NCBI GenBank assembly: GCA_964396965.1
Contig: CAYNGD010000006.1
Coordinates: 8,771 to 72,770, forward strand
Length of the DNA stretch: 64,000 bases
Direction: 5' to 3'
DNA from: an uncultured Dehalococcoidales bacterium
GTDB lineage: Bacteria > Chloroflexota > Dehalococcoidia > Dehalococcoidales > BS750m-G39
Part shown: positions 7,658 to 27,178 of the stretch, piece after piece
How positions within the stretch are numbered: position 1 is the first letter of the stretch
Layout of the letters: every line of letters starts with the position of its first letter
Notes under the pieces: model-generated
The model's database searches: none
Seen by the model: the letters and a program-made list of their open reading frames with translations, nothing else
What the model was told of the DNA's origin: nothing
Made by a program: the position numbers and the translations under genes

Positions 7658-8371
7658 TTGGCCAAGCACGGTAAGAAATATAACGAGGCACTAGCCCTGG
7701 TGGACCGGGCCAGGCTCTATGAGCCCGCCGAGGCCATCGAGATGGCCAAGAAGGCGGCCTATACCAAGTTCGATGAGACGGTTGAGCTTCACCTGCGGAT
7801 GGGGATTGACCCCCGCGACGCCACCCAGCAGGTGCGCGGGGTAGCTTTATTGCCCCACGGGCTGGGCAAGAAGGTGCGGGTGCTGGTCTTTGCCCAGGGT
7901 GAGGCGGCCAGGAATGCCGAGAGCGCCGGCGCCGACTACGTCGGCGGTGACGACCTGGCTAAAAAGATTGAGGGGGGCTGGCTGGACTTTGACGTCACCA
8001 TCGCCACCCCGGATATGATGGGCAAGGTGGGCCGGCTGGGTAAGATCCTGGGGAGGCGGGGGCTGATGCCCAACCCCAAGTCGGGGACGGTGGTGGCCGG
8101 CGAAGACCTGCCCCGGGCCATCAACGAGGCCCGCCAGGGGCGGGTGGAGTTCAAGCTGGACCGGACGGCTATCATTCATCTCCCGCTGGGCAAGGCCAGT
8201 TTTGAGACGGATAAGCTGCTGGCCAACCTCACCGCCGTTATCGAGGCGGTGACCCGGGCCAAGCCCGCCGGGGCCAAGGGGCAGTATATCAAGACGGCCA
8301 CTTTAACCACCACCATGGGGCCGGGCTTTAAGCTCGACCTGAGACCAACCCTGTCGCTAACCTCCAGTTAG
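7658..8371 (+). CDS. rplA: 50S ribosomal protein L1
   Basis: 237 aa. TTG start with a GAGGTGGA RBS. Typical L1 sequence ([25 protein letters not shown]). Confidence 0.95.
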
Positions 8372-8401
8372 TAAAATCTAGACTGCAAAGGGGACGTTGA
8401 T

Positions 8402-9553: not shown

Positions 9554-9556
9554 TTA

Positions 9557-9970
9557 ATGGGCTTTGAGAATTTCGGCACGGTCAGCTTTACTTCAGAGGC
9601 CAAGGTAACCGATTTCATCACCCAGCTGGAGGCGGGCAAAGTGATGGCCACCCGCTGCCGCCAGTGCGGGGGCAGCTACTTTCCCCCCAAGGCGGACTGC
9701 CCCAAGTGCCTCTCCAGTGATGTTGAGTGGTTCGAGGTTAAGAGCACGGGTAAGCTCCTGAGCTATACCGTGGTCAACTACGGCCCCACCGGTTTCGAGA
9801 ACGACGCCCCCTATATCCTGGCTCTGGTGCGGTTTTACGAGGGCATCCAGATTCTGGCCCGTCTTAGCCGGGATATCGCCGAGAAGGATATTAAGGTCGG
9901 TATGAGTCTTAAGGTCAGTCCGGTAAGGCTGGCCGATAACAGGATTGCCTACCAATTTAGCAGAGCCTAA
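9557..9970 (+). CDS. DUF35 protein (Zn-ribbon plus OB-fold)
   Basis: 137 aa with CRQCGGSYFPPKADCPKC (CxxC-x10-CxxC) followed by an OB-fold-like C-terminus. Only 3 nt downstream of the thiolase. Confidence 0.8.
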   Translation: MGFENFGTVSFTSEAKVTDFITQLEAGKVMATRCRQCGGSYFPPKADCPKCLSSDVEWFEVKSTGKLLSYTVVNYGPTGFENDAPYILALVRFYEGIQILARLSRDIAEKDIKVGMSLKVSPVRLADNRIAYQFSRA

Positions 9971-9984
9971 CAAGGAGGACAATC

Positions 9985-11391
9985 ATGGTTGGTATTACCT
10001 CATACGGCGCTTATGTGCCCCTCTACCGGCTGAGCCGGGAGGCGGTAGCCAGGGGCGCCCGCGGCGAGAAGGCGATATGTAACTTCGATGAGGACAGCAT
10101 CACAATGGCGGCGGCGGCGGCTATCGACTGCCTGACCGGCCTTGACCGGGAGAAGATTGACGGGCTCTATTTGGCCACCACCACCTCCCCCTACAGGGAG
10201 AAGTCGGGGGCGACTATCGTGGCCATGGCCGCCGACCTCAGAGAGGAAATCCTTACCGCCGATTTCGCCCATTCCCTGCGGGCGGGGACATCGGCATTCA
10301 GGTCAGCTATTGATGCGGTCAAGGCAGGCTCGGCCAAGAGGGTGCTGGTGACGGCGGCTGACTGCCGTCTGGGGCTTCCCGGCTCGGTCTATGAGCAGAA
10401 CTTCGGTGACGGTGCCGGTGCCCTCCTTATCGGCGACACTAATGTTATCGCCAACATTGAAGATAGTTACTCGGTCTATAACGAGATAACCGACGTCTGG
10501 CGATCTGCCGGCGACACCTTTATCCGTTCCTGGGAGGACCGCTTTACCACCACCCACGGCTACGCCACGGCGGTGAGCGAAGCGGTATCAGGGCTATTAA
10601 AGAAGACCGGCCTGAAGCCGGCCGATTTCGCCAAGGTTGTTCTCTATACCCCGGACGCCCGCCGCAGCGCCGACGTGGCTAAAAGACTGGGCTTTGACCC
10701 CAAGACCCAGCTCCAGGACCCCTTATTTAATTTTCTGGGCAACACCGGCAGCGCCCTCCCCCTGATGCTGCTGGCGGCGGCGCTGGAGGAGGCCAAGGCG
10801 GGCGACAGGATACTGCTGGCCAGCTACGGTAACGGCAGCGATGCCTTTGTCCTCCAGGTGACCGAACAGATAGCCAAAATCAAGCCCCGGCGCGGAATGA
10901 AGGGGCATCTGGCCTCGAAGAAGGTAATGGATGATTACCGCCAGTACCTCATCTGGCGGGGAATCCTGCCGATAGAGCCGCGCAAGGAGACGGTGGCCTT
11001 TATCTCCGCCCCGGCCCTGTGGCGGGAGCGAGACGCCAACCTGCGTCTGCGCGGGGTCAAGTGCAAGGTCTGCGGCACCATCCAGTTCCCGCCGCAGCGG
11101 GTCTGCATCAAGTGCCACAGCAAAGACCAGTTCGAGCCCTACCGCCTGTCGGACAAGAAGGCCAAGATATTCACCTTCTCCATGGACTATATCACCTATC
11201 CGGTGCTGGAGCGGCCGGTGGTCAACGTCACCGTTGACTTCGAGGGTGGGGGCAGGGCGCTACTGTATATGACCGACCGCGAGGCGGAGCAGGTCAAGTG
11301 CGGCCTGCCGGTGGAGATGAGCTTCAGGAAGCTGATGGTCAGGGACGGCATCCACAACTATTACTGGAAGGCGATGCCCTTAAGGACATAA
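9985..11391 (+). CDS. Archaeal-type HMG-CoA-synthase-like protein fused to a C-terminal DUF35 domain. Catalytic residues appear substituted.
   Basis: 468 aa. The N-terminal ~345 aa align by eye to archaeal HMGCS (VGITSYGAYVP, DVWR, GNTGSA, LASYGNGSDAF). The C-terminus carries CKVCGTIQFPPQRVCIKC plus an OB fold. The expected Glu/Cys/His positions read T/L/Y. Confidence 0.8.
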   Translation: MVGITSYGAYVPLYRLSREAVARGARGEKAICNFDEDSITMAAAAAIDCLTGLDREKIDGLYLATTTSPYREKSGATIVAMAADLREEILTADFAHSLRAGTSAFRSAIDAVKAGSAKRVLVTAADCRLGLPGSVYEQNFGDGAGALLIGDTNVIANIEDSYSVYNEITDVWRSAGDTFIRSWEDRFTTTHGYATAVSEAVSGLLKKTGLKPADFAKVVLYTPDARRSADVAKRLGFDPKTQLQDPLFNFLGNTGSALPLMLLAAALEEAKAGDRILLASYGNGSDAFVLQVTEQIAKIKPRRGMKGHLASKKVMDDYRQYLIWRGILPIEPRKETVAFISAPALWRERDANLRLRGVKCKVCGTIQFPPQRVCIKCHSKDQFEPYRLSDKKAKIFTFSMDYITYPVLERPVVNVTVDFEGGGRALLYMTDREAEQVKCGLPVEMSFRKLMVRDGIHNYYWKAMPLRT

Positions 11392-11419
11392 GCGACAGAA
11401 TAAAGGGGGAGGTAACCCT

Positions 11420-12598
11420 ATGGTAGGCATTAAAGATAGAGTGGCCATAGTGGGTATGGGTTGTACCCAGTTCGGCGAGCTCTGGGATAAAAGTCATAAA
11501 GATCTGCTGGTTGAGGCCTGCTACGAGGCCTTCGAGGACGCTGGCATCGAGCCCAAGGACATTCAAGCTGCCTGGTACGGCAGCCGCGAGACCGGCTTTA
11601 CCGGCACCCAGCTGGCCAATGCCATAAAGCTGGACTATATACCGGTCAGCCGGGTGGAGAACTTCTGCGCCGGCGGCACCGATACCTTCCGTAATGCCTG
11701 CTATGCCGTGGCCAGCGGCGTCTGTGAGATCGCCCTGGCAGTGGGGGTGGAGAAGTGCAAGGACCACTACGGCGGCTTCTGCATGGACATTCTCGACCCC
11801 TTTGACCGCAGCATGGTGGAGTGGGAACTGCCCCCGGCCAGTCAGTTCGCCCTGCTGGCCACCAGGTATATGCACCACTACGGCTGGAAGTACGAGGACT
11901 TCAAGCGGATACTCTCCATGATTGACGTCAAGAACCATCACAACGGCACCATGTCCCCCAAGGCCCAGTTCCGGCGGGAGATAACCATAGAGCAGGCCAT
12001 GAACGCCCCCATGATTTCCTACCCGCTGGGACTGTATGATGCCTGCGGGGTGAGCGATGGTTCGGCGGCGGCCATTATCACCACCCCTGAGATTGCCAAA
12101 AAGATGAGAAAAGACTACGTCCTGGTAAAGGCTTTAGCCCTGACCAACGGTGCCGGCCAGGCGGTAATGCAGCCGGAGTACAATTTTATCTCCATCCCGG
12201 AGACGGCAACCGCTGCCGAGCACGCCTACAGAGAGGCGGGTATAACCAAACCCCGCCATGAGATAGACGTGGCCATAGTCCATGACTGTTTTTCCATTAC
12301 CGAGCTGATGACCATGGAGGACCTGCAGTTCAGCCCCAGGGGTAAGGCCCCGGAGGATGTTGAGGCTGGCACCTTTACCCTGGAGGGAGAGCTGCCGGTT
12401 AATACTGACGGGGGGCTGAAATGCTTTGGCCATCCCCTTTCGGCCAGCGGGCTGAGGATGATTTATGAAGTCTACAAGCAGCTGCAGGGTAAGGCCGGCC
12501 CCAGGCAGCTGAAGAAAGCGGATATGGGTCTAACCCATAATGTGGGAGGTATCTGCGGCTTCTTTAACTGCACCGTGGCTTTGTTCGGTAGACCATAA
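11420..12598 (+). CDS. SCP2/archaeal-type thiolase (second copy)
   Basis: 392 aa with a Cys nucleophile in ENFCAGGT, plus VHDCF, GHPLSASG and HNVGG. Confidence 0.85.
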   Translation: MVGIKDRVAIVGMGCTQFGELWDKSHKDLLVEACYEAFEDAGIEPKDIQAAWYGSRETGFTGTQLANAIKLDYIPVSRVENFCAGGTDTFRNACYAVASGVCEIALAVGVEKCKDHYGGFCMDILDPFDRSMVEWELPPASQFALLATRYMHHYGWKYEDFKRILSMIDVKNHHNGTMSPKAQFRREITIEQAMNAPMISYPLGLYDACGVSDGSAAAIITTPEIAKKMRKDYVLVKALALTNGAGQAVMQPEYNFISIPETATAAEHAYREAGITKPRHEIDVAIVHDCFSITELMTMEDLQFSPRGKAPEDVEAGTFTLEGELPVNTDGGLKCFGHPLSASGLRMIYEVYKQLQGKAGPRQLKKADMGLTHNVGGICGFFNCTVALFGRP

Positions 12599-17435: not shown

Positions 17436-17572
17436 TATTCACCCCATCCCCCTTTATCCCCCTTCCCCTAGAGGGGAAGGGGGAAGTGATTTTAAGAGGG
17501 GGCATTAGCCCCCTCTCTATTTTTCTCCCCCTTTCCTTTCCAAGGGGGATTAAGGGGGTGAGGTTGCTAGAT
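17436..17572. repeat. Cluster of three G/C-tract hairpins (repeat copy R1, divergent member of the intergenic repeat family)
   Basis: Three hairpins: CCCCCTTCCCCT/AGGGGAAGGGGG palindrome, GAGGGGGC-ATTA-GCCCCCTC, and CCCCCTT...AAGGGGG. Flanked by TTCACCCCATCCCCC and GGGGGTGAGG. Confidence 0.6.
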
Positions 17573-17592: not shown

Positions 17593-17622
17593 TTGACAAA
17601 CTTTACCTCTATGTGATAGATT
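17593..17622 (+). promoter_or_regulatory. Sigma-70-type promoter of leader L1
   Basis: TTGACA (17593..17598), an 18 nt spacer, then TAGATT (17617..17622). Confidence 0.5.
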
Positions 17623-17629
17623 AAACGCG

Positions 17630-17818
17630 ATATGTTAAGTCAGGCTGTCTCCTGGAGTTTATTTGCCGATTTCGCCTTTACAGGGCGCACCCGGTGCGCT
17701 TGGGGGGCAGCTTGTTTGAAAATTTAAGGCTATTTAAGATATAAAGAAATCCAGAAGAGACCCTCCCAGGCGGAGGGATTTTTGTTTATTAAGGGAACTA
17801 ACCATAAGGAGGGGTAGC
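17630..17818 (+). promoter_or_regulatory. Structured 5' leader L1 with terminator/antiterminator (unclassified cis-regulatory RNA candidate)
   Basis: Terminator CCCTCC-CAGGC-GGAGGG plus ATTTTTGTTT (17761..17790). Upstream GCTTGGGGGG (17698..17707) is complementary to the terminator 5' arm. Paralogous to L2. Confidence 0.5.
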
Positions 17819-19027
17819 ATGGCTGGGCCTTTAGACGGGGTCAGGGTGGTGGAGATAACCATGTTTCAGCAGGGGCCGGTGGCCGGTATGAGGTTGGGTG
17901 ACCTGGGTGCCAAGGTGATTAAGGTTGAGGCTAAGACCGGAGACCCAGGTAGAGGGATGATGAGGATGGTCGGCGTCGATGCCGGCCTAAAGGGGCGAAA
18001 CTATTACTTTGAGAGCAATAACCGCAACAAGAGGAGCATCGTCCTTGACCTTAAGACGAGAAAGGGGATGAAGGTATTCTTAAAGCTGATTGACCGGGCT
18101 GATGTCTTTCTGACCAACATGAGCATCGAGGCACCGCAGAGGATGGGCATCAGCCCCGAGGTGTTGCTCAAGAGAAATCCACGGTTGATCTATGCCCATG
18201 CCTCCGGATGGGGCCGTAAAGGCCCGGATGCCAGCGAGCTTTCCTTCGACTATACCGGCATTGCCCGGTCGGGGACGATGATGATGTGTGGGGAGAGGGG
18301 TGATCCGCCGGGAATCCTGATACCGGGTATGGGTGATGAGCAGGGTGGGCTTATCTGCGCCTGGGCGGTGACCGCCGCCCTCTATGCACGGGAGAAGACA
18401 GGCCGGGGGCAGCTGGTCGATACCTCTTTGATGGGCAGCCTGATTTCCCTGCACGGGGTCAGCTTCTCGGCGCCTGGGGTTCTGGGACAGGAGTTCCCCA
18501 GACTACTCAGGTCGGAAGCGGGCAACCCGATTTATAACCACTATGGGTGTAAGGACGACAAATGGATTGTCTTGGCTCACCTCCAGCCCGACCGGTACTG
18601 GCCCAATGTCTGCCGGGCGATGGGGCTGGAGGAGCTGGAGCATGACCCCAAATTTAGCACGATAGAAGCCAGGCACGATAATGCCAGGGAGCTGGTGGCT
18701 ATCCTGGACGAGAGGTTCGCCACCAGGACCAGGGATGAATGGATGGAGATTTTTAAGAGGGAGGATGTAATCTATACCCCGGTCCAGTCAGCCAGCGAGG
18801 TCTTTGAGGACGGACAGGCGCTGGCCAATGACTATATCATCCCGGTTGACCATCCGGTCTGGGGCAGGATAAAGATGCTGGGCTTCCCCTGGACATTCCA
18901 CGAGACACCAGCCTCGGTGCAGAGGGAGGCCCCCGAGCTCGGCCAGCACACCGAGGAGATTCTGCTGGAGCTGGGCTATAGCTGGGAGGATATCGCTGCT
19001 TTAAAGAATGAAGAGGCGATACCTTAA
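17819..19027 (+). CDS. Class III (CaiB/BaiF family) CoA-transferase
   Basis: 402 aa with LDGVRVVEITMFQQGPVAGMRLGDLGAKVIKVE at the N-terminus and family-typical length. Confidence 0.88.
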   Translation: MAGPLDGVRVVEITMFQQGPVAGMRLGDLGAKVIKVEAKTGDPGRGMMRMVGVDAGLKGRNYYFESNNRNKRSIVLDLKTRKGMKVFLKLIDRADVFLTNMSIEAPQRMGISPEVLLKRNPRLIYAHASGWGRKGPDASELSFDYTGIARSGTMMMCGERGDPPGILIPGMGDEQGGLICAWAVTAALYAREKTGRGQLVDTSLMGSLISLHGVSFSAPGVLGQEFPRLLRSEAGNPIYNHYGCKDDKWIVLAHLQPDRYWPNVCRAMGLEELEHDPKFSTIEARHDNARELVAILDERFATRTRDEWMEIFKREDVIYTPVQSASEVFEDGQALANDYIIPVDHPVWGRIKMLGFPWTFHETPASVQREAPELGQHTEEILLELGYSWEDIAALKNEEAIP

Positions 19028-19047
19028 AGGCTGCTAAAAGGATGAGT

Positions 19048-19076
19048 TTGACAATAGCGCTTTTATATGTTAAGAT
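19048..19076 (+). promoter_or_regulatory. Sigma-70-type promoter of leader L2
   Basis: TTGACA (19048..19053), a 17 nt spacer, then TAAGAT (19071..19076). Confidence 0.5.
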
Positions 19077-19082
19077 TAGGTT

Positions 19083-19295
19083 TGCTTAAATATGGATGAG
19101 AATAAGATGTTAAATATCGCCTTCCAGGACTATTATTACGCCTATTATTTTACACCGAAAGGTGTGCTTGGGAGGTTTGCGGCCTGAAGCAGGGTAGTTA
19201 AGAGCTAAAAATAAACAGGAAAGCTAAAAGGAACCCTCCCAAGCGGGAGGGTTCTCCGTTTTTAGGAATATAACCAAAGGAGGACTAAAAATCAA
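19083..19295 (+). promoter_or_regulatory. Structured 5' leader L2, paralogue of L1
   Basis: Terminator AACCCTCCC-AAGC-GGGAGGGTT plus CTCCGTTTTT (19232..19263). Upstream GCTTGGGAGG (19166..19175) is an exact complement of CCTCCCAAGC in the terminator 5' arm. Confidence 0.5.
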
Positions 19296-20237
19296 GTGAC
19301 CGAAAGAATGGTTAAAAGAAGGTATGAAATCTTTACCATTGCCCCCAACTTTTACCAGCTGGGTACCCCCTCCTATCCGGCCTATCTGACGATGGGGGAT
19401 AAAGGGATGATTATCGAGGGGGGCACCGGGGCTACCTTTCCCATTATCGTTGCCCAGCTCCGGGAGCTGGGCAACGAGCCGGAGCGGATAGAATACGTTG
19501 CCCTTACCCATACCCACCCCGACCATTTCGGCGCCGTACCGCACCTAAAGAAGCTGTGGCCTCATCTGAAGGTTATCGCCAGCGACCTGGCGGCTAAGCT
19601 GCTGCAGAAGGAAGAAGTCATCAAGGACTTTGTCCGCATGGATCGCACCATCGCCGAGATTCTGCTGGTCAAGGGCGATATCGACTGGTGGCCCGTCGAG
19701 CTGGAAAACCCGGTCTTCAAAATTGATAGGATTGTCGGCGAGGGGGATAAGATAGACCTCGGTTCGGGTATGGTATGGACCGTTTATGAAACGCCGGGGC
19801 ATTCGCCCTGCCATATCTCCTTTCACAACGAAAGGGATGGCATACTGGTTATCGGGGACGCCACCGGGATATACGAGCCCGACAAAGAGGTCTTCTGGCC
19901 TAACTATTTCCAGTCCCTGGAGGAGTACTGCAACAGCATTCGCAAGCTGGCGGTGCTGCCGGCTAGGATAGGCGCCCGCAGCCACGGCGGTGTTGTCGGA
20001 GGGGAACCCGGGCACTATTTGCGGAGGGTTATAAAAGCTACCGAGGCTTATCACCGCGAGCTGATGGACCGGCTGGCTGGCGGTGAGAGTCCTGAGGCGA
20101 TTGCCCTGGATAAGGCGAAGTGGGTATATACCTTCACCAACCTACAGCCCTTTAAGCTGATACATGCCATGACCGGGCTTACCCTCAGGCTTTCTCAGGC
20201 GGCGGATGGTAAAGAAGGCCTGTTTGGTGTCCCCTGA
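19296..20237 (+). CDS. MBL-fold metallo-hydrolase
   Basis: 313 aa with the HTHPDH (HxHxDH) motif plus later His/Asp ligands. Start codon is uncertain because the RBS is 12 nt from the GTG. Confidence 0.8.
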   Translation: MTERMVKRRYEIFTIAPNFYQLGTPSYPAYLTMGDKGMIIEGGTGATFPIIVAQLRELGNEPERIEYVALTHTHPDHFGAVPHLKKLWPHLKVIASDLAAKLLQKEEVIKDFVRMDRTIAEILLVKGDIDWWPVELENPVFKIDRIVGEGDKIDLGSGMVWTVYETPGHSPCHISFHNERDGILVIGDATGIYEPDKEVFWPNYFQSLEEYCNSIRKLAVLPARIGARSHGGVVGGEPGHYLRRVIKATEAYHRELMDRLAGGESPEAIALDKAKWVYTFTNLQPFKLIHAMTGLTLRLSQAADGKEGLFGVP

Positions 20238-20279
20238 ACTCAGGCAAGGTGTTATAATACAGCGAAGAGGAGTAACGTT

Positions 20280-21437
20280 ATGCCAAGTGAGGCTATTGGC
20301 GGGCTGATGGCAGCCGATAAATACTACCAGGACTACGGCGCCAGGGCCAGAGAGCTTAAGAAGCAGGGGAAAAAGATAATAGGCTACCTGTGCGCCTTTA
20401 CCCCGGTGGAGATCATCACCGCCGCCGGCCTAGTGCCTTTCCGGATAAAAGGAGATGTTAACGAGCCCATCACTAAGGCCGATACTGAGATGGAGACCAT
20501 CGTCTGCCCCCTGGTGCGGAGCTGCTTTGATATGGCGCTTAAGGGAAACTATGAGTTCCTTGACGGCATCGTCATCCCCCACGCCTGTGACAGCATCTCC
20601 CGGACCTACGATGTCTGGAAGTATTCACTGAACCTCCCCTACTCCCATTTCATCAATATGCCCCACAGCACCGACGGGCCGTCACTCGAATTTTACAAGG
20701 CGCTGCTGGGCACGTTAAGGAAGAGCCTGGCCAAGTTTGCCGGAAGAGAGATTTCCGACCAGGACTTGAGAGAGGCAATAAAGCTCTACAACCAGAACCG
20801 GGCTAAAGTGCGGGAGCTGTATGAGCTGAGGAAGGCCTCGCCGCCCCTGATATCGGGTGCGGAGATAACCAGGGTGTTGGTAGGGGCAATTAGCCTGCCG
20901 GTTGAGGAGGCCACCCGGCTCGTTGACAGCGTTATCGAAGAGGTCAAGCAGCGGCCGCCGCTACCGGCCAAGGCAGCCCGGCTGATGGTGGTTGGTGCCG
21001 AGGTTGACGATATTGCCTTCATCGACCTCATCGAGGACAGCGGGGCCTGGGTGGTGGCCGACGACCTCTGCCCCGGGGCGAGGGAGTTCTGGGCCGATGT
21101 TGAGGTCACCAAGAATCCGATTGACGGCATCGCCGAGCGGTATTTAAGGAAGATAAACTGCGGCCGGACCTTCCGTGAGAGAAAAGGGAGCTATGACGAC
21201 TATCTCGAGGAGAGGTTCGGGCATATCGGGCGTTTTATTAAAGAATTTAAGGTGGATGGGGTGGTGCTCTATATTTACAAGTACTGCGACCCTTACGGCT
21301 TCGACGTGCCGCCGATGAAGGGCTACATCGAATCTAAGGGAACGCCGGTGCTCTACCTTGAGGACGAGTATTCCATGTCCACCATCGGCAGGCTCAGGAC
21401 CAGAATTCAGGCCTTCCTGGAATTGATTGCTAAATAG
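20280..21437 (+). CDS. Benzoyl-CoA reductase / 2-hydroxyacyl-CoA dehydratase family subunit (BzdN/BcrC/HgdB-like)
   Basis: 385 aa HGD-D-type sequence (IGYLCAFTPVEIITAAGLVPFRI, conserved Cys in CPLVRSC, PHACDS). Confidence 0.85.
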   Translation: MPSEAIGGLMAADKYYQDYGARARELKKQGKKIIGYLCAFTPVEIITAAGLVPFRIKGDVNEPITKADTEMETIVCPLVRSCFDMALKGNYEFLDGIVIPHACDSISRTYDVWKYSLNLPYSHFINMPHSTDGPSLEFYKALLGTLRKSLAKFAGREISDQDLREAIKLYNQNRAKVRELYELRKASPPLISGAEITRVLVGAISLPVEEATRLVDSVIEEVKQRPPLPAKAARLMVVGAEVDDIAFIDLIEDSGAWVVADDLCPGAREFWADVEVTKNPIDGIAERYLRKINCGRTFRERKGSYDDYLEERFGHIGRFIKEFKVDGVVLYIYKYCDPYGFDVPPMKGYIESKGTPVLYLEDEYSMSTIGRLRTRIQAFLELIAK

Positions 21438-21458
21438 TAGTTTATAAGGAGAACGGTT

Positions 21459-22796
21459 ATGACCGAGGAGAAGAAACCGGAGGAGAGAAAAAAGAGGAGG
21501 ACGGCCACCGAGGCGGCGGCCAAGATAGGGCCGATGGCCAAGGCGATGAACGCCGCCGTGCTTCAGGCGAGCCAGGATGGCGAGCCGATAGCCTACTCCT
21601 TTATCTACAGCGGCTATGACGAAATCATCCGGGCGATGGATATCGTCCCCGCCTGGACGGAGAACTACGCCGGAATCTGCGGTGCCAAGCGCGATGCCCA
21701 GCGGTTCCTGGAGAGGGCGGAGGGGGAGAACTTCTCCCGCTCCCTCTGCACCTACGCCCTCTGCGGCCTGGGCTTTGACAACTGGCGCGAGGAGCTGGGG
21801 GAGATGCCCCTGGATGCCCCCTGGGGTGGGCAGGCCCGGCCCACGGTGATGCTGGGCAGCGGCCAGGTCATCTGCGACCCCAGGTACAAGTGGTACCAGG
21901 CGGCCCAGCACTATATGACCGACGTGCCGGTCTATGTCGGCGGGCTGCCCTATCCCCCCTATGAGGAGGACTACGACTACCGCGAGGTGCAGGACTACTA
22001 CGTGAAATATATCGTCGGGGAGCTGCGGGGGCTGGTCGAGTTTCTGGAGAAGAATACTAATAGAAAGATGGACTGGGAGCGCTTGAGCCAAGTGGTTGAC
22101 ATCAGCGACCGCACCTGGAACACGATTTCCGAGGCCTACGACCTGCGCAAGGCGGTGCCCTGCCCGATGGGCACCGGCGACGCCATGAATACCATGGTGC
22201 CGATGACCTTCATGATGGGAACCCAGGAGGCCCTGGACTTCTTCAAGGACCTATATGATGAGCTTAAGTGCAAGATAGCCAACAAAGAGGGCGTAATTCC
22301 CGACGAGAAATACCGGCTGCTCTGGGGTGGGGGGCTGCCCTCGTGGTTTGCCCTGACTGATTTTAACTACTTCAACAGCAGGGGGGCGGTCTTTCCCGCC
22401 GAGACTACCTACCGGCTGCTGGAGCCGGTCTATAAGCTGGACTTACCTAAGGTCAGCGACCCACTGGAGCACCTGGCCTGGCGCTGGGTGAGGTACTGGA
22501 CCTGTCGTCATGACAGGGCCAGGAAACGCCCGGGCTCTACCCCTGAGGTTGAGCGCCTTATTGAGTATATCGAGGAATACAAGATAGACGGGGTGGTGAT
22601 GCACGAGGCCTTCTCCTGCCGCAGCTGGCACCCCGGCCTGATATGGCAGCTTAACCAGCTCAAACGGGTCTATAGTGATATACCATCGCTGGTTCTGGAG
22701 AGCGATATCGTTGACATCAGCTCCTATAACGAGGCCGACACCAGGGCCAGGATAGATGCCTTCATCGATACCCTGGAGGCGGTCAAGAGCCGGTGA
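21459..22796 (+). CDS. Benzoyl-CoA reductase / 2-hydroxyacyl-CoA dehydratase family subunit (BzdO/BcrB/HgdA-like)
   Basis: 445 aa, second HGD-D-type subunit with conserved Cys residues (SLCTYALCG, AFSCRSW). Tightly linked to its neighbours. Confidence 0.85.
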   Translation: MTEEKKPEERKKRRTATEAAAKIGPMAKAMNAAVLQASQDGEPIAYSFIYSGYDEIIRAMDIVPAWTENYAGICGAKRDAQRFLERAEGENFSRSLCTYALCGLGFDNWREELGEMPLDAPWGGQARPTVMLGSGQVICDPRYKWYQAAQHYMTDVPVYVGGLPYPPYEEDYDYREVQDYYVKYIVGELRGLVEFLEKNTNRKMDWERLSQVVDISDRTWNTISEAYDLRKAVPCPMGTGDAMNTMVPMTFMMGTQEALDFFKDLYDELKCKIANKEGVIPDEKYRLLWGGGLPSWFALTDFNYFNSRGAVFPAETTYRLLEPVYKLDLPKVSDPLEHLAWRWVRYWTCRHDRARKRPGSTPEVERLIEYIEEYKIDGVVMHEAFSCRSWHPGLIWQLNQLKRVYSDIPSLVLESDIVDISSYNEADTRARIDAFIDTLEAVKSR

Positions 22797-23638
22797 AAAG
22801 CCAGTATTTCGCCGGGGTTGACATCGGTTCCACCATGACCAAGGTGGTCATCATGGACCAGGCGACCCTGGCCTCGGTTATCGGCCCCACCGGCCCCGAG
22901 CACCGCAAGCTGGCCAACCGGGTGATGGAGGAGGCGCTAGGCAAGGCCGGACTTGCCTTCGAGGAGATAACCTACCTGGTGGCCACCGGCTACGGGCGGA
23001 TCAACGTCCCCTTCGCCGACAGGCAGATAACCGAGATATCCTGCCACGCCCGGGGGGTGGCCCACCTGCTGCCCGGGGTGAGGACGGTGATTGACATCGG
23101 CGGCCAGGACAGCAAGGGAATCAAGCTCAAAGACGGGCGGGCGGTGGACTTCGTTATGAACGACAGGTGCGCCGCCGGCACCGGCCGCTTTCTGGAGGTG
23201 ACCGCCGAGAGCCTCGGCGTCAGCCTGGAGGAGATGGGTAAATTAGCGCTGGAGGCTAAGAATAAGGTGGAGATAGGCAGCACCTGCACCGTCTTCGCCG
23301 CCCAGGAGGTAGTGGCCAAGCTCTCCGAGGGGGCGGCGCTGGCCGATATCATCGCCGGCCTGCACGAGGCGATTGCTACCCGGATATACGGCATGGTCCG
23401 GCGCCTGAAGATAGAGAGGGAGGTGGCCCTGACCGGCGGCGGGGCTAAGAATATTGGCCTAGTTAAGTCTATGGAAGCTAAACTGGGCTTCCCGGTGCTG
23501 CTGCCACCGGAGCCGCTGCTCACCGGGGCTATCGGGGCGGCGCTGCTGGGTGGGGATATAGTCAAGGAGGCGGAGAAGAAGGGAGAGAAACTAAAGAAAA
23601 GCCCCCGTCGCCTCACTGAGGCTACCTTGTTTACATAA
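22793..23638 (+). CDS. BcrAD/BadFG/HgdC-type ATPase (electron-activating subunit 1)
   Basis: 281 aa with GVDIGSTMTK, DIGGQDSK, cluster Cys motifs RCAAGTGRFLE and STCTVFA. GTG start overlaps the upstream stop (GTGA). Confidence 0.88.
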   Translation: MKSQYFAGVDIGSTMTKVVIMDQATLASVIGPTGPEHRKLANRVMEEALGKAGLAFEEITYLVATGYGRINVPFADRQITEISCHARGVAHLLPGVRTVIDIGGQDSKGIKLKDGRAVDFVMNDRCAAGTGRFLEVTAESLGVSLEEMGKLALEAKNKVEIGSTCTVFAAQEVVAKLSEGAALADIIAGLHEAIATRIYGMVRRLKIEREVALTGGGAKNIGLVKSMEAKLGFPVLLPPEPLLTGAIGAALLGGDIVKEAEKKGEKLKKSPRRLTEATLFT

Positions 23639-23653
23639 TATAGGAAGAAAATC

Positions 23654-24439
23654 ATGATATATGTTGCCGGGATTGATATCGGCTCCGCCTTCGCCAAGGC
23701 GGTGATAATGGCGGAGAATAAAATAGTCGCCCACCGGGTAAAGCCCTCCGGCGGGAACTACAGGCTCACCGCCGGGCAGGTTATGGATGAGGCTCTTGAC
23801 AAGGCCAGGCTATCTCAAAAGGATATAGCCGGTACCGTAGCCACCGGCTACGGCGCATCCAGCGTCTCTTCGGCCAGCCAGACAGCCTCGGATATATCCT
23901 GCCTGGCTAGGGGGGTGCACTATCTCTTTCCTGGTGCCCGCACCGTCATTGATATCGGCGGGCAGTTCACCCGAGTGCTTAAATTAGACGGGCGGGGGAG
24001 GGCCACCTCCTTCCTGCTCAGCGAGAAGTGCGCCGCCGGTAGCGGGCGATTTCTGCAGGTGATTGCCAGGGTGCTTCAGGTTAACCTTGATGACATCGGC
24101 GAGCTATCGCTAAAGTCCAAGAAAAGGGTTGACTTCAACACCGGCTGCGCCGTCTTCGCAGAGTCGGAGGCGGTATCCCGCATCGCCGAGGGGGCGGCCA
24201 AGGAGGATATTCTGGCCGGTCTGCACCGGGCTCTGGCGGCTAAGATTCAGGCCATGGTGGCCAGGCTCGGCCTTGAGCCTGAGTGTGCTGTGGTGGGGGG
24301 TGGGGCCAAGGATATCGGGCTGGTCAGGAGCATAGAGGCCGGGCTGGAGGGTAAACTGCTGATTCCCGACGAGCCGCAGATTGTGGCCGCCCTGGGGGCA
24401 GCCCGGCTGGCCGGGGAAAAGGTCGATCAGGGGGACTGA
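23654..24439 (+). CDS. BcrAD/BadFG/HgdC-type ATPase (electron-activating subunit 2)
   Basis: 261 aa with GIDIGSAFAK, DIGGQFT, KCAAGSGRFLQ and TGCAVFA. Distinct paralogue of the preceding gene. Confidence 0.88.
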   Translation: MIYVAGIDIGSAFAKAVIMAENKIVAHRVKPSGGNYRLTAGQVMDEALDKARLSQKDIAGTVATGYGASSVSSASQTASDISCLARGVHYLFPGARTVIDIGGQFTRVLKLDGRGRATSFLLSEKCAAGSGRFLQVIARVLQVNLDDIGELSLKSKKRVDFNTGCAVFAESEAVSRIAEGAAKEDILAGLHRALAAKIQAMVARLGLEPECAVVGGGAKDIGLVRSIEAGLEGKLLIPDEPQIVAALGAARLAGEKVDQGD

Positions 24440-24440
24440 T

Positions 24441-25832
24441 ATGATTGATAAGAAGATTATAACCGAACTACGCAAGACGGTAGGCGAGAACGCCGTCATG
24501 ACCTCAAAGGAGGACCTCAATGCCTACTCCTACGACGGCACCACTACCTGGGCTCACCCGCCCGACGTGGTGGTGCTGCCGACCACTGCCGAGCAGGTCT
24601 CCCACATCCTGAAGCTGGTTAACGAGCACAGGGTCCCGGTCACCCCCAGGGGGGCCGGCACCAACCTCAGTGGCGGCTCCATCCCGATAAAGGGGGGTAT
24701 CGTCCTCTGCACCACCAGGATGGATAAAATACTGGACATAAACAAGGCCAATCTGACCGCCACCGTCGAGCCCGGCGTGGTGCTCCAGGACTTCAATCTG
24801 GCCCTGGCCAAGCAGGGGTTGTTCTATCCCCCCGACCCCCAGAGCTTCCTAGGCTGCACCCTGGGTGGCAACGTGGCCGAGAATGCCAGCGGCCCCTACT
24901 GCGTCAAGTATGGGGTAACCAAGCAGTACGTGTTGGGGCTGGAAGTGGTCCTGGCCAACGGCTACATCATGAAGCTGGGTGGGGTGACGGTCAAGAACCG
25001 CACCGGCTATGAGCTGATGATGCTGTTCACCGGCTCCGAGGGAACGCTGGGGGTAATCACCAAGATAACCCTCCGGCTGCTGCCGATGCCGCCGGCCAAC
25101 CAGACGGTGATGGCTGTCTTTGACGATGTGGCCGTCGGTGGGCAGGCGGTATCCGATATCATGGCCAGCGGGGTGGTGCCGGCCAAGGTCGAGTTCGTTG
25201 ATAACTTCGTCCTGAGGCGAATCGAGGAGATGACCCCGATGGGTCTGCCGGTGGAGGCCAAGGCGCTGCTGCTGATCCAGACCGATGGCTCGCCGGCGGC
25301 GGTTGAGGCCGAAACTAAGCAGATTGTTGAAATACTGAAGAAGAGCGGGGCCAAGGAGGTCAGGGTGGCCAAGGACGCTGCCGAGGCGGCGATGTACTGG
25401 AAGATGAGGAGCGCCGGCTATGCTGCTACCTTCGGTGCCGCCCATACCGTCATGACCGAGGACGTGACCGTGCCCCGGGACCGGATGGCCGAGTTCATCC
25501 ACAAGCTGGAGGAGATATCGGAGAGGACCGGCTTCTTTATCTGCTACCTGGGCCATGCCGGCGACGGCAATTTGCACCCATCGATATTCACCGATATCAG
25601 GAACGAGGAGGAGTTCGCCCGCGCCCAAAAGGCGATGGAGGAGATATTCGAGTCGGCGCTCTCGGTGGGCGGCGTCCTCTCCGGCGAGCACGGCATCGGT
25701 CTGGAGAAACAGCGCTTCCTCAAGCGGGCGATGGACCCGGTGGCCCTTGACCTGATGATAAAGATAAAGGGAATTTTGGACCCCAACCATATCCTCAACC
25801 CGGGCAAGATATGGGAAGAGGAAAGGGTTTGA
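24441..25832 (+). CDS. FAD-linked oxidase, GlcD / D-2-hydroxyacid dehydrogenase-like
   Basis: ATG 24441 lies 1 nt after the upstream stop (the track ORF from 24381 is an upstream extension). Shows an FAD PCMH domain (PRGAGTNLSGGSIP) and C-terminal GEHGIG. Confidence 0.88.
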   Translation: MIDKKIITELRKTVGENAVMTSKEDLNAYSYDGTTTWAHPPDVVVLPTTAEQVSHILKLVNEHRVPVTPRGAGTNLSGGSIPIKGGIVLCTTRMDKILDINKANLTATVEPGVVLQDFNLALAKQGLFYPPDPQSFLGCTLGGNVAENASGPYCVKYGVTKQYVLGLEVVLANGYIMKLGGVTVKNRTGYELMMLFTGSEGTLGVITKITLRLLPMPPANQTVMAVFDDVAVGGQAVSDIMASGVVPAKVEFVDNFVLRRIEEMTPMGLPVEAKALLLIQTDGSPAAVEAETKQIVEILKKSGAKEVRVAKDAAEAAMYWKMRSAGYAATFGAAHTVMTEDVTVPRDRMAEFIHKLEEISERTGFFICYLGHAGDGNLHPSIFTDIRNEEEFARAQKAMEEIFESALSVGGVLSGEHGIGLEKQRFLKRAMDPVALDLMIKIKGILDPNHILNPGKIWEEERV

Positions 25833-25833
25833 T

Positions 25834-27123
25834 ATGGCCAGGACCGAGCTGGACAAATACCAGCAGATAAAGAGGTTTGAGGACGACCTGGGCCAGTGCA
25901 TGAAGTGCGGCTTCTGCACCTTCTGGTGCCCGGTCTACCGGGAGGAGCGGGTAGAACCTTCGGTGGCACGGGGCAAGGACATGATGATAAGAGGGCTGCT
26001 GGCCGGTGAGCTGGATTATACTAAGGAGTATGCCGACCGCCTGAACCAGTGCACCCTCTGCATGGCCTGCACCGCCAACTGTCCGGCCAAGGCCAACATT
26101 CCCAACGTCATCGTCGCCGCCAGGGCGGACACGACCAAAGCTCGTGGCTTGAAGTTTCCCTATAATATCGTCTACCGCTGGCTGCTGCCCCGCCGGACGC
26201 TTTTCGGTGGCGTGGTCCGCTTCGCCTCCTGGCTCCAGGGTATCTTTATGCCCAGGACCGAGGGCACCATCCGGCATCTATCCCTGTTCCTCTCGGCGCT
26301 AGGCCGGGGCCGGAACATACCCCAGATTGCCCCCCACTTCCTGAGGCAAACGGTGCCGGTGGTGAATAAGCCGCCGGAAGGCGTTAAGACGGTGATGACG
26401 GTGGGCTATTTCACCGGCTGTATGACCGACTTCGTTCTGCCTGAGCTGGGAAGGCATATTATCGACTTCCTGACCCGGAACGGGGTCGAGGTCATCGTGC
26501 CCCGCGAGCAGGGCTGCTGCGGATCGCCGGTTTTCCTGGGGGCGGGTGACTTCGACACCGGCCGGAAGATGGCCGATAGCAACGTTAAGGCCTTTGAGGA
26601 GGTGGACTACGTGGTCACCGACTGTGCCACCTGTGTCTCGACGCTTAAGGACTACCCCAAATTTCTGGCCGATAGCCCGGAGCGGGAGGAGGCCTACAAG
26701 AAGTTCGCTGGCAAAATACTGGATATCTCCCAGTTCCTGGTTGACGTGCTGAAATTACCGGCGTCGGCCTATCAACCCTCGGCGGAAGCCAAAGGCAAGA
26801 AGGTCACCTGGCACGACCCCTGCCACCTCAGCCGTTATCTGGGGGTAACCAGCCAGCCCCGGCAGATTATAAGGTCGATACCCGGTGTGGAGTACATCGA
26901 GATGCCTAACGCTGACCGGTGCTGCGGCATGGCCGGGACCTTCAGCTTTTACTACTACGACCTGTCCAAGCAGATTGCCGATAAGAAGGTGGCGGCAATC
27001 AAGTCCACCGGGGCCGATATCGTCGTCACCGGCTGCCCCGGCTGTGAGATTCAGCTTATTGACAGCCTGCTGCGGAACAAGGTCCCGGTAGAGGTGATGC
27101 ACATTATGGAGCTGCTGGCCTGA
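25834..27123 (+). CDS. Fe-S oxidoreductase, GlcF/HdrD-like (2x[4Fe-4S] plus two CCG domains)
   Basis: 429 aa with CMKCGFCTFWCP, CTLCMACTANCP, CCGSP and CCGMAG. Confidence 0.88.
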   Translation: MARTELDKYQQIKRFEDDLGQCMKCGFCTFWCPVYREERVEPSVARGKDMMIRGLLAGELDYTKEYADRLNQCTLCMACTANCPAKANIPNVIVAARADTTKARGLKFPYNIVYRWLLPRRTLFGGVVRFASWLQGIFMPRTEGTIRHLSLFLSALGRGRNIPQIAPHFLRQTVPVVNKPPEGVKTVMTVGYFTGCMTDFVLPELGRHIIDFLTRNGVEVIVPREQGCCGSPVFLGAGDFDTGRKMADSNVKAFEEVDYVVTDCATCVSTLKDYPKFLADSPEREEAYKKFAGKILDISQFLVDVLKLPASAYQPSAEAKGKKVTWHDPCHLSRYLGVTSQPRQIIRSIPGVEYIEMPNADRCCGMAGTFSFYYYDLSKQIADKKVAAIKSTGADIVVTGCPGCEIQLIDSLLRNKVPVEVMHIMELLA

Positions 27124-27144: not shown

Positions 27145-27178
27145 AGAGGCTGGTTTTTAAAGCCAGCCTCTTTTGTTT
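27145..27178 (+). terminator. Intrinsic terminator after the glcF-like gene
   Basis: AGAGGCTGG-loop-CCAGCCTCT followed by TTTTGTTT. Confidence 0.7.

Follow-up and report, generated by a model that had tools for sequence, protein, structure and literature searches.

Which pathway does an oxygen-sensitive ketyl-radical enzyme serve when its gene context resembles a 2-hydroxyacid pathway and its four subunits resemble an ATP-dependent aryl-CoA reductase? The question is raised by a cluster of eight co-directional open reading frames (ORFs) at positions 17819-27123 of a 64,000-nucleotide stretch of DNA, hereafter the window, from an uncultured Dehalococcoidales bacterium (assembly GCA_964396965.1, contig CAYNGD010000006.1, positions 8,771 to 72,770). 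The ORFs encode proteins with CoA_transf_3, Lactamase_B, HGD-D (two), BcrAD_BadFG (two), GlcD-like and Fe-S/CCG domains. An initial annotation of the window had listed the same gene content, placed the enzyme in the benzoyl-CoA reductase/2-hydroxyacyl-CoA dehydratase (BCR/HAD) family and pointed out the tension between its context and its build. All eight ORFs are present with these domains, the cluster is real as observed, and both the tension and the family membership hold, the latter on the basis of two HGD-D subunits, a Cys3 plus Glu site and ASKHA ATPases. The catabolic reading of that annotation was not supported. Based on the regulatory elements described below, the most likely role of the cluster is to supply precursors of aromatic amino acids and not to degrade aromatics.

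Candidate leader-peptide attenuators

The intergenic gaps along the eight genes are, in order, 268, 42, 21, -4, 15, 1 and 1 nt. The genes had been described as running in one direction with overlapping or near-abutting ends up to a clean terminator. The shared direction and the terminator (Table 1) were confirmed, and the spacing is as described from the metallo-beta-lactamase (MBL)-fold gene to the CCG gene (-4 to 42 nt), but not after the CoA-transferase gene, where the 268-nt gap lies. Within this gap, a short ORF lies between a promoter-like site and a terminator hairpin, and the cluster is therefore two transcription units and not a single uninterrupted one. The CoA-transferase gene is itself preceded by a leader (leader A) that is paralogous to the one in the gap (leader B); the two share invariant blocks over ~230 nt and a conserved promoter. 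The -35 element of leader A (TTGACAA) and its spacing are also conserved upstream of CoA-transferase genes in related loci.

Both leaders have the same order of elements, namely a promoter-like site, a short ORF, and a hairpin plus T-run immediately upstream of the next gene's Shine-Dalgarno sequence. A segment immediately ahead of the aromatic codons, region 1 (TCCCAAG/CTCCTGG), is able to pair with region 2, which lies inside the leader ORF 9-18 nt ahead of its stop codon. Region 3 of leader B (CCTCCCAAGC), the 5' arm of the terminator, is the exact complement of region 2. Aromatic residues occupy four of nine positions in leader A and six of nine in leader B, where five Tyr codons and one Phe codon fall within a row of seven, and up to eight of nine in orthologous leaders. 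The leader ATG is invariant and TAT/TAC varies synonymously across orthologues; one locus (L011) shows compensatory changes in regions 2, 3 and 4 (CAGGGGGGGG, CCCCCCCCCAAG and TGGGGGG, respectively). Tyr-run or Phe/Tyr leaders were found ahead of orthologous genes in ~15 Dehalococcoidia species. Orthologues of leader A, before the first CoA-transferase gene, read ..ALFFADFIFT.. or ..GLYYTNFIFS.., and Tyr-run orthologues such as MISQIASQEYYYYYYFYAS and YYYYYYFY precede the MBL, small-subunit or second CoA-transferase gene. No leaders were seen in deltaproteobacterial loci.

Codon-run leaders of the trpL, pheL, pheM and hisL type activate gene expression as charged cognate tRNA runs low. By analogy, a ribosome stalled on the Phe/Tyr codons would free region 2 (GCUUGGGAGG) to pair with region 3 (CCUCCCAAGC), so that the terminator is prevented, and a ribosome reaching the leader stop codon would cover region 2, so that transcription terminates. 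Folding with ViennaRNA under an imposed ribosome footprint gave, for leader A, 1:2 pairing plus the terminator in the free RNA, the 2:3 antiterminator with the ribosome on the aromatic codons, and the terminator with the ribosome at the stop codon. All three folds of leader B had the terminator as their thermodynamic optimum, and a switch would therefore have to be kinetic. The two leaders resemble trpL, pheL, pheM and hisL of Proteobacteria in having a short codon-run ORF, four segments with 1:2, 2:3 and 3:4 pairings, a stop codon beside region 2 and a terminator, and in their targets, which are genes for making the amino acids concerned and for charging the cognate tRNAs. They differ in their Tyr-codon runs, their Chloroflexota host and their additional control of a radical-enzyme cluster. 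No Rfam family matched the leaders at gathering thresholds, the matches obtained being at chance level (e.g. Phe_leader, 22-24 bits), and our literature searches found no paper on these leaders or on Tyr-codon attenuation of this kind.

A Phe/Tyr-starvation regulon in metagenomes

Metagenomes were scanned with the pattern GCTTGGG-N(50-75)-CCCTCCCAAGCGG, which comprises region 2 and the terminator and contains no aromatic codons. At least 120 loci were recovered (L086-L205), and all fractions below are among the 120 matches listed. In 100 of 120 matches, region 2 was spanned by a leader ORF that had at least four F/Y/W in nine residues, compared to 99 of 2000 random positions; in 54 of 120 this ORF had at least six in nine, compared to 13 of 2000. 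The gene downstream was most often a type I-beta 3-deoxy-D-arabino-heptulosonate 7-phosphate synthase (DAHPS; at least 61 loci; NF006421, 446 bits, cut-off 335), heading a nine-gene operon in the order DAHPS-aroB-aroD-aroE-aroK-aroA-aroC-pheA(CM-PDT-ACT)-tyrA (e.g. L155:600-9305 and L125). Other downstream genes were the CoA-transferase of the present cluster (at least 14 loci), a pyridoxal phosphate-dependent aminotransferase (at least 10 loci; PRK06836, 513 bits, cut-off 376) with leaders like HYYYYYYYAFT, an aldolase-like protein of 331 aa (at least four loci), a 366-aa protein of unknown function (at least three loci), followed in L134 by an ATP-binding cassette (ABC) transporter with a PF04392 binding protein, the MBL gene of the present cluster (at least three loci), pheS behind Phe-only leaders (at least two loci; TIGR00468, 315 bits, cut-off 237), and a c3-type acyl-CoA ligase (at least one locus) 62% identical to the ligase beside the enzyme module in Syntrophaceae. 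Leader codon usage tracks the target genes: over the best nine residues, leaders of MBL operons average 5.7 Tyr and 1.3 Phe, those of the aminotransferase 4.3 and 1.9, and those of DAHPS 3.3 and 2.0.

Because the same attenuator class heads the DAHPS-shikimate-pheA-tyrA operon, the aminotransferase and pheS, the cluster is very probably under Phe/Tyr-responsive attenuation and a member of a Phe/Tyr-starvation regulon. Given that codon-run leaders act when the cognate charged tRNA is scarce, it appears to share its control with genes for the de novo synthesis, transamination and uptake of Phe and Tyr and for the charging of their tRNAs. These shared attenuators argue for an anabolic or salvage role and not for aromatic degradation. 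The initial annotation had inferred a route from a 2-hydroxyacid to an enoyl-CoA; in view of the regulon the opposite direction, from enoyl-CoA to 2-hydroxyacid, is the likely one if the enzyme is a (de)hydratase.

A role of the cluster as a stand-in for missing pheA and tyrA was considered and rejected, as the leader-controlled shikimate operon in related contigs ends with both genes. Their presence would therefore make salvage an accessory economy measure rather than a replacement. The window also contains a T-box leader (RF00230, 97.7 bits) at 4267-4558 on the reverse strand, upstream of trpE (2788-4239) and trpD (1189-2220). The organism thus appears to place its Trp genes under a tRNA-sensing T-box and its Phe/Tyr genes under leader-peptide attenuation.

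Table 1 Coordinates of the cluster genes and their predicted regulatory elements in the window
Feature	Position	Strand	Properties
Promoter-like site, leader A	17593..17622	+	TTGACA, 18 nt spacer, TAGATT
Leader peptide A	17632..17727	+	MLSQAVSWSLFADFAFTGRTRCAWGAACLKI; rich in Phe/Trp codons; region 1 at 17649-17657; region 2 (GCTTGGGGGG) at 17698-17707
Attenuator terminator A	17761..17787	+	CCCTCCC-AGGC-GGAGGG, then T-run; 5' arm is region 3, complementary to region 2
Class III CoA-transferase (402 aa)	17819..19027	+	PF02515/CoA_transf_3, 388 bits
Promoter-like site, leader B	19048..19076	+	TTGACA, 17 nt spacer, TAAGAT
Leader peptide B	19107..19187	+	MLNIAFQDYYYAYYFTPKGVLGRFAA; region 1 at 19120-19128; region 2 (GCTTGGGAGG) at 19166-19175
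Attenuator terminator B	19230..19262	+	GGAACCCTCCC-AAGC-GGGAGGGTTCT, then T-run
MBL-fold hydrolase (313 aa)	19296..20237	+	PF00753/Lactamase_B; intact HxHxDH motif THTHPDH
Small HGD-D subunit (385 aa)	20280..21437	+	PF06050, 299 bits; C38, C76, C103, C264, C294, C336
Large, substrate-binding HGD-D subunit (445 aa)	21459..22796	+	HGD-D, 189 bits; C97, C139, C387, Glu68, Arg142
ATPase subunit a (281 aa)	22793..23638	+	PF01869/BcrAD_BadFG; DIGSTMTK, DIGGQD; two bridging-cluster Cys
ATPase subunit b (261 aa)	23654..24439	+	BcrAD_BadFG; bridging Cys present; degenerate phosphate-2 motif DIGGQF
GlcD-type FAD-dependent D-2-hydroxyacid dehydrogenase (463 aa)	24441..25832	+	PF01565 (FAD_binding_4) and PF02913 (FAD-oxidase_C)
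Fe-S partner (429 aa)	25834..27123	+	PF13183 (2x[4Fe-4S]) and PF02754 x2 (CCG)
Closing intrinsic terminator	27145..27178	+	12-bp stem at 27145-27171, 3-nt loop, then T-run

Catalytic subunits and ATPases

No protein of the cluster attains an NCBIfam equivalog cut-off. The small subunit scores highest with the double_cubane model (233 bits, cut-off 350), followed by BzdN (193, cut-off 454), HadC (187, cut-off 700) and BcrC (146, cut-off 421), and the large subunit gives 99 bits with HadB (cut-off 750), 98 with BzdO (cut-off 449) and 70 with BcrB (cut-off 487). Matches of both subunits in the PDB are limited to BzdNO (8S02), MbdON (from MbdONQP, 9G87/9GAI), HadBC (3O3M) and the double-cubane cluster protein (DCCP; 6ENO). 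Scores of the small subunit were 196 bits with BzdN, 152 with HadC, 111 with DCCP and 97 with MbdN; those of the large subunit were 86 with BzdO, 71 with MbdO, 57 with HadB and 42 with DCCP, rising to 104, 98, 87 and 53, respectively, when an 18-sequence profile was used.

DCCP carries two [8Fe-9S] double cubanes, whereas class I BCR has a single one, bound by six Cys in BzdN and proposed to serve as a two-electron store, together with an aqua-[4Fe-4S] cluster in BzdO (C95, C128 and C380 with E65 and H131), and 2-hydroxyacyl-CoA dehydratases retain single cubanes only (PMC11971306). In a MAFFT alignment of 78 small-subunit orthologues with BzdN, DCCP and HadC, the six columns that are Cys in both BzdN and DCCP are all Cys in the window protein, which thereby departs from the single-cubane beta subunit of the dehydratases; in HadC, Pro and Ala take the place of two of the six (C38 and C264). 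All six Cys are present in 59 of the 78 orthologues, including 25 of 25 of the Dehalococcoidia type. A 17-member Syntrophorhabdus/Syntrophus subclade (L049, L057, L061, L067, L069, L072, L073, L075-L077 and L079-L085) has lost the distal cubane ligands, with C38 replaced by Ser/Thr, C264 by Ser and C294 by Ile/Leu/Val. As this three-Cys sister clade retains the GlcD/CCG context, the double cubane, and its distal cubane in particular, is suggested to be dispensable for the reaction of the family.

Residue roles in the large subunit were assigned from the BzdNO structure (PMC11971306). C97, C139, C387 and E68 are invariant across 18 orthologues, as is Y99. C97, C387 and E68 align with BzdO C95, C380 and E65, and C139 falls opposite C129 in the HMMER alignment, or, if shifted by one residue on visual inspection, opposite C128. 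The invariant Arg142 stands in the place of BzdO His131, which neighbours the Fe-bound water, a moderately certain assignment at ~20% identity. Loss of cluster ligands, a possibility raised in the initial annotation, is not seen in any of these positions of the window proteins. On this basis, we predict that the enzyme probably has a BCR-type cofactor layout.

The two ATPases are true paralogues, both well above the cut-off of TIGR00241 (279 and 233 bits, cut-off 125), and C126 and C165, which bind the bridging [4Fe-4S] cluster, are conserved in both. Subunit a scores 254 bits with HadI and 240 with MbdQ, and HadI is the highest match of each of the two (254 and 218 bits). Motif conservation was assessed in 73 orthologues. 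The second Asp of DxGGQD is replaced by F or Y in the orthologues of subunit b examined (62 orthologues); MbdP shows an analogous change (DIGGQT), whereas HadI, HgdC, MbdQ and DCCP-R retain the Asp. Two different ATPase genes, as in class I BCR and unlike the single homodimeric activator that the dehydratases use catalytically, lie adjacent in ~75 of 82 loci, and the sequences suggest an asymmetric heterodimer with one weakened ATP site.

CoA-transferase, MBL, GlcD and CCG proteins

FldBC and HadBC work together with class III CoA-transferases. The one encoded here is below every NCBIfam equivalog cut-off, its closest relatives being dicarboxylate (succinate-hydroxymethylglutarate) or formyl-CoA transferases; succinate-hydroxymethylglutarate CoA-transferase is also its nearest solved structure (185 bits). 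It adjoins the enzyme module in 21 of 25 Dehalococcoidia loci. Many orthologous loci have two tandem class III CoA-transferase paralogues (~70% and ~87% identical to that of the window), including L008, L015, L111, L116, L119, L129, L150, L167 and L200. Where examined, both paralogues are preceded by leaders of their own, with mixed Phe/Tyr codons for the first and mostly Tyr codons for the second, which suggests two acceptor specificities or a heteromeric enzyme.

The best solved relatives of the MBL protein are all PqsE, a 2-aminobenzoylacetyl-CoA thioesterase (73-74 bits, E ~1e-19). It is probably an acyl-CoA thioesterase, and this likeness fits a CoA-ester pathway. Both proteins have an intact HxHxDH metal site, although the relationship to PqsE of Pseudomonas aeruginosa is distant and no quinolone genes are found here. 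The MBL gene is present in eight of 25 orthologous Dehalococcoidia loci and is an optional part of the cluster.

The GlcD-like ORF opens at 24381, but translation probably begins with the ATG at 24441, which follows a GGGGGA Shine-Dalgarno sequence and lies one base past the stop codon of ATPase b. The protein gives 499 bits with TIGR00387 (cut-off 568) and, among PDB entries, 337 with glycolate oxidase, 308 with LctD, 251 with D-lactate dehydrogenase and 198 with D-2-hydroxyglutarate dehydrogenase. Enzymes of the GlcD family use D-(R)-2-hydroxyacids as substrates, in keeping with the (R)-specificity of 2-hydroxyacyl-CoA dehydratases. Its Fe-S/CCG partner resembles HdrD, GlcF, GlpC and the C-terminal part of LdhH (339 bits), and is HdrB-like in comparisons with the PDB. 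The pair shares domain architecture and strong similarity with GlcDF, the D-lactate dehydrogenases of sulfate reducers and LctD of Acetobacterium woodii, but is embedded in a radical-enzyme operon and remains below equivalog cut-offs; aryl-lactates would be its candidate substrates.

Phylogenetic position and gene neighbourhoods

A search of 1.84 billion representative proteins returned 169 clusters at E <= 1e-30 and 733 at E <= 1e-10. Approximately 150 uncharacterised representatives scored 130-540 bits, all above any solved enzyme. In a rough neighbour-joining (NJ) tree, the orthologue group of the window forms a tight clade on a long stem (Dehalococcoidia, Syntrophaceae and Syntrophorhabdus), with BzdO, MbdO and HadB among the most distant representatives. 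Placement was based on hidden Markov model (HMM) scores, PDB chains and this crude tree, with HgdAB, FldBC, LcdAB and BcrBC represented by HMMs or not at all. On this evidence the subunits fall outside every characterised clade; tight clustering within one, an outcome the initial annotation had allowed for, was not observed. An exact look-up of the large subunit returned no record, the orthologues and ten more distant representatives have generic names and come from metagenome-assembled genomes (MAGs) only, with no cultured or characterised relative found, and literature searches yielded no paper on this enzyme clade, only general bcr/bzd claims for marine Chloroflexi. Dehalococcoidia/Chloroflexota MAGs also encode further HGD-D large-subunit paralogues ~42% identical to that of the window (representatives P0125 and P0127), so these bacteria carry several uncharacterised enzymes of the HGD-D family.

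Large-subunit orthologues were found in 80 GTDB species of Dehalococcoidia and Thermodesulfobacteriota (Syntrophaceae, Syntrophorhabdus and Desulfatiglandales). Synteny of the four-gene enzyme module extends to ~75 of 82 related loci in these two phyla and the CoA-transferase...GlcD/CCG arrangement recurs in most Dehalococcoidia loci, and the cluster arrangement is therefore far beyond chance. The typical Dehalococcoidia order is CoA-transferase, MBL (eight loci) or a second CoA-transferase (some loci), and small-large-ATPa-ATPb-GlcD-CCG; at least 16 Dehalococcoidia loci have GlcD/CCG linked to the module. In Syntrophaceae, a Liv-type ABC transporter and an AMP-forming acyl-CoA ligase accompany ATPb-small-large-ATPa, in some cases with an acyl-CoA dehydrogenase and another MBL protein. 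The three-Cys Syntrophorhabdus loci L049 and L057 have an IorA-like 2-oxoacid:ferredoxin oxidoreductase and two ligases; GlcD/CCG is linked in other arrangements in L024 and L049, and L057, which is cut at its end, has CCG only. Acyl-CoA dehydrogenase and c3-type acyl-CoA ligase genes neighbour the module in other loci, one ligase having its own Tyr-run leader. Genes for a ferredoxin and for Dch/Had/Oah (dienoyl-CoA hydratase, dehydrogenase and ring hydrolase) are absent from the 64-kb window and from the conserved neighbours of related loci, and no electron-transfer flavoprotein (Etf) or enoyl-CoA reductase is encoded in the window. Taken together, the neighbours speak for 2-hydroxyacid/2-oxoacid/enoyl-CoA metabolism and not for a benzoyl-CoA pathway.

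A variant neighbourhood is found in L001 (6339-15648), L002, L007 and L067, where a three-subunit molybdenum enzyme resembling 4-hydroxybenzoyl-CoA reductase (627-683 bits, cut-off 995) adjoins the module. L001, L002 and L007 have no nearby ATPases but encode an arylformamidase-like cyclase (PF04199), a divergent CoA-transferase and CoxG; L067 has both ATPases. No aromatic leader peptide was present in L001 or L007. Indole/isatin or kynurenine metabolism, suggested by the cyclase and molybdenum hydroxylase, was considered and set aside, since this context is confined to a few loci that are without leaders where examined.

Comparison with characterised systems

The Fld system of Clostridium sporogenes (FldA/FldBC/FldI) and the Had system of Clostridioides difficile (HadA/HadBC/HadI; 3O3M, 4EHT) likewise combine a class III CoA-transferase with two HGD-D subunits and HgdC-type ATPases. 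They further share the large-subunit Cys3 [4Fe-4S] site with its conserved Glu, the link to a D-(R)-2-hydroxyacid dehydrogenase and, in HadI, the top ATPase match. Similarity of the catalytic subunits is nevertheless low (HadB 57-87 bits, HadC 152 bits), the small subunit here has six Cys, two of them missing from HadC, and there are two ATPase genes instead of one. The dehydrogenase of the window is an FAD/Fe-S enzyme (GlcD plus HdrD-like) rather than NAD-dependent, a probable MBL thioesterase is added, and regulation and the inferred direction are anabolic.

BzdNOPQ of Aromatoleum sp. CIB (8S02) and MbdONQP (9G87/9GAI) include the best solved matches (BzdN 196 bits, BzdO 86-104 bits) and share the four-gene architecture, the six-Cys [8Fe-9S] site, the [4Fe-4S] Cys3 plus Glu site and a degenerate DxGGQD as in MbdP, the cofactor being predicted in our case. 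The present enzyme differs from them in falling far under equivalog cut-offs, in the change of His131 to Arg, in the lack of ferredoxin and lower benzoyl-CoA pathway genes, in having a CoA-transferase in place of a ligase, and in its putative Phe/Tyr-starvation control. DCCP and DCCP-R of Carboxydothermus hydrogenoformans (6ENO, 7YYL) have the six ligand Cys in common with the small subunit, whose top NCBIfam model is double_cubane. DCCP, however, forms homodimers that contain two double cubanes and lack a CoA-ester site, whereas only one of the two paralogous subunits has double-cubane ligands here.

Proposed function

We propose that the cluster is an accessory supply of Phe/Tyr precursors, which would be switched on when Phe- and Tyr-tRNA run short. 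Environmental aryl-C3 acids (cinnamate, p-coumarate) would be activated by the class III CoA-transferase, and arylpropionates could also enter where a ligase and an acyl-CoA dehydrogenase are present. Primed with one low-potential electron by the ATPase pair, the four-subunit enzyme would add water at C2 by ketyl-radical chemistry at its [4Fe-4S]-OH2 site, yielding (R)-aryl-lactyl-CoA. This hydration would be the reverse of the reaction of FldBC and HadBC (phenyllactate and 2-hydroxyisocaproate dehydratase, respectively); an Fe-bound water has been seen in both HadB and BzdO. The free (R)-2-hydroxyacid might be released via CoA transfer to the next substrate molecule or via the PqsE-like MBL thioesterase, in which case hydrolysis would render the sequence irreversible. 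The GlcD-type flavoenzyme and its HdrD-like Fe-S partner would oxidise the hydroxyacid to phenylpyruvate or 4-hydroxyphenylpyruvate, from which the co-regulated aminotransferase would form Phe and Tyr.

Salvage along these lines uses every part of the cluster. We nevertheless put forward the conversion of cinnamate or p-coumarate to Phe/Tyr by reverse dehydratase chemistry as a possible, somewhat less than probable, function. Because the enzyme keeps the class I BCR cofactor and subunit layout, we further propose that it is an intermediate form between reductases and dehydratases. The combined proposition is offered with a little more reserve: a BCR/HAD-family ketyl-radical enzyme of abundant, uncultured sediment Dehalococcoidia that would work anabolically on lignin-derived cinnamoyl-/4-coumaroyl-CoA, hydrating the alpha-carbon toward Phe/Tyr, under an undescribed Chloroflexota attenuator regulon, and as a reductase/dehydratase intermediate that would join a double cubane and a heterodimeric ATPase to chemistry of the dehydratase type.

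Several observations weigh against salvage by hydration. The main one is the reductase-like build: the six-Cys site, the two ATPases and the BzdN/BzdO scores above those of HadC/HadB indicate an architecture that is BCR-like and not dehydratase-like. To our knowledge, no 2-hydroxyacyl-CoA dehydratase works anabolically. Use of aryl-lactates alone would need only GlcD/CCG, the kin of the CoA-transferase are dicarboxylate-specific, and Arg142 could indicate a carboxylated substrate. Organisms with the leader also have the complete canonical pathway (pheA, tyrA), so that the route is dispensable. Lastly, a 4-hydroxybenzoyl-CoA-reductase-like molybdenum enzyme adjoins the module in three or four loci, and the deltaproteobacterial orthologues, 60-69% identical, are without leaders, making a catabolic role possible there.

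As the build of the enzyme is reductase-like, a two-electron, ATP-stoichiometric reaction that also feeds Phe/Tyr is a serious rival, albeit one we regard as rather unlikely. In this case an ATP-dependent reductase would turn some other plentiful aromatic CoA ester into a Phe/Tyr precursor; it might, for example, act on a substituted phenylpropanoid and reductively remove a substituent of the ring or side chain. GlcD/CCG would be either the next pathway enzyme or an electron-input module replacing the ferredoxin genes of bcr/bzd/mbd clusters. Such a reaction would account for the match of the six double-cubane Cys to BzdN, the proposed two-electron store, for the heterodimeric ATPase pair with one degenerate motif, as in MbdQP, for BzdN and BzdO as best solved matches, and for the FAD/Fe-S dehydrogenase adjoining a module that has no ferredoxin gene, and it agrees equally with membership of the cluster in the Phe/Tyr regulon. 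We could, however, name no concrete reductive reaction toward arylpyruvates; D-2-hydroxyacid couples are too positive as normal donors for such enzymes, the three-Cys sister clade occurs in the same context, and stoichiometric use of ATP is expensive for energy-limited subsurface cells.

The two remaining rivals both conflict with the regulation. A forward, catabolic or fermentative 2-hydroxyacid pathway of the Fld/Had/Lcd/Hgd type is improbable: it would lead from an amino-acid-derived 2-oxoacid via the D-2-hydroxyacid and its CoA ester to an enoyl-CoA and on to further reduction. In its favour, an enzyme of the dehydratase family and its activators are encoded together with a class III CoA-transferase and a D-2-hydroxyacid dehydrogenase, acyl-CoA dehydrogenase and IOR-like genes occur in related loci, and the individual ATPases score highest to HadI. 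Yet the degradation of Phe/Tyr derivatives under Phe/Tyr starvation, as implied by attenuators shared with the shikimate/pheA/tyrA operon and pheS, would be senseless. GlcD-type FAD/Fe-S enzymes, moreover, normally oxidise 2-hydroxyacids instead of reducing 2-oxoacids, and the window lacks Etf and enoyl-CoA reductase genes.

Slightly less probable again is a class I-type aryl-CoA ring reductase for anaerobic aromatic-acid degradation, the common metagenome reading for marine Dehalococcoidia, to which papers assign bcr/bzd genes; JGI names the orthologues of the present genes 'benzoyl-CoA reductase/2-hydroxyglutaryl-CoA dehydratase subunit'. This reading agrees with the BCR-like architecture, the 4-hydroxybenzoyl-CoA-reductase-like enzyme in L001, L002, L007 and L067, and the ligase and ABC transporter that adjoin the Syntrophaceae module, an arrangement like that of aromatic catabolic clusters; but all BCR equivalog cut-offs are widely missed (193 vs 454, 98 vs 449), BzdO His131 is an invariant Arg, ferredoxin and Dch/Had/Oah genes are not found nearby, the cluster lies in the core genome and is co-regulated with aromatic amino-acid biosynthesis, and more than 100 uncharacterised representative clusters are nearer than any BCR. 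Ring reduction by the four-subunit enzyme is thus unlikely. Acrylate/D-lactate, glutaconate/D-2-hydroxyglutarate and anaerobic alpha-oxidation pathways are chemically possible and were set aside, as none explains the Tyr/Phe-codon control.

Implications

Anaerobic breakdown of aromatics has been ascribed to marine Dehalococcoidia in several studies because of their bcr-type genes, and orthologues of the present enzyme are very common in sediment metagenomes (more than 900 clusters at 90% identity with E < 1e-10) under automatic names such as 'benzoyl-CoA reductase'. If the clade serves amino-acid supply, the genes behind this inference would have been misread and part of it needs re-examination. 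For energy-starved subsurface cells it would make sense to recover the two costliest amino acids from plant-derived acids, and hydration by the enzyme would possibly be the first case of a radical (de)hydratase reaction used in that direction. The clade joins the layout of an ATP-driven reductase with the gene context of a dehydratase, and its sister clade has lost the distal cubane; together they provide a natural test of the proposed DCCP -> BCR -> HAD evolutionary path. The easily recognised Tyr/Phe attenuator family offers a regulon map for unculturable Chloroflexota and points to further members, such as the 366-aa protein and the aldolase-like protein.

Genomic setting and other features of the window

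The window has ~59% G+C, and the nearest relatives of its proteins are from uncultured Dehalococcoidia/Dehalococcoidales MAGs (73-89% identity). The genes flanking the cluster are housekeeping genes (comM, rplL, uvrA, sbcC, ffh, rpoD and ATP synthase), and the cluster is therefore part of the core genome rather than an island. The window also contains trpED with its T-box, tuf, rplA, dnaG, ppdK and several tRNA synthetase genes. A major facilitator superfamily (MFS) transporter upstream and an amino-acid permease downstream of the cluster gave no specific clue to its substrate.

An element of ~130 nt at 17441-17570 consists of three G/C-rich hairpins, CCCCTTCCCC-TAGA-GGGGAAGGGG, AGAGGGGGC-ATTA-GCCCCCTCT and a third. 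It recurs in L001/L002 (~8390-8520), L011 (~200-300), L012 (~7230-7300, reverse strand) and L025 (~5900-6000), and lies just upstream of the cluster promoter in several species with differing flanking contexts. Its role may be that of an insulator/terminator, or it may be a small repeat element.

An archaeal-type gene trio at 8402-12598 lies between rplA (7658-8371) and an L10 leader (Rfam RF00557, 12614-12740). It encodes a thiolase, a 3-hydroxy-3-methylglutaryl-CoA (HMG-CoA) synthase fused to a DUF35-like zinc-ribbon/OB domain (NF003274, 254 bits, cut-off 244) and a second thiolase (acetyl-CoA acetyltransferase). The trio is an unusual insertion in a ribosomal-protein region and hints at a mevalonate pathway.

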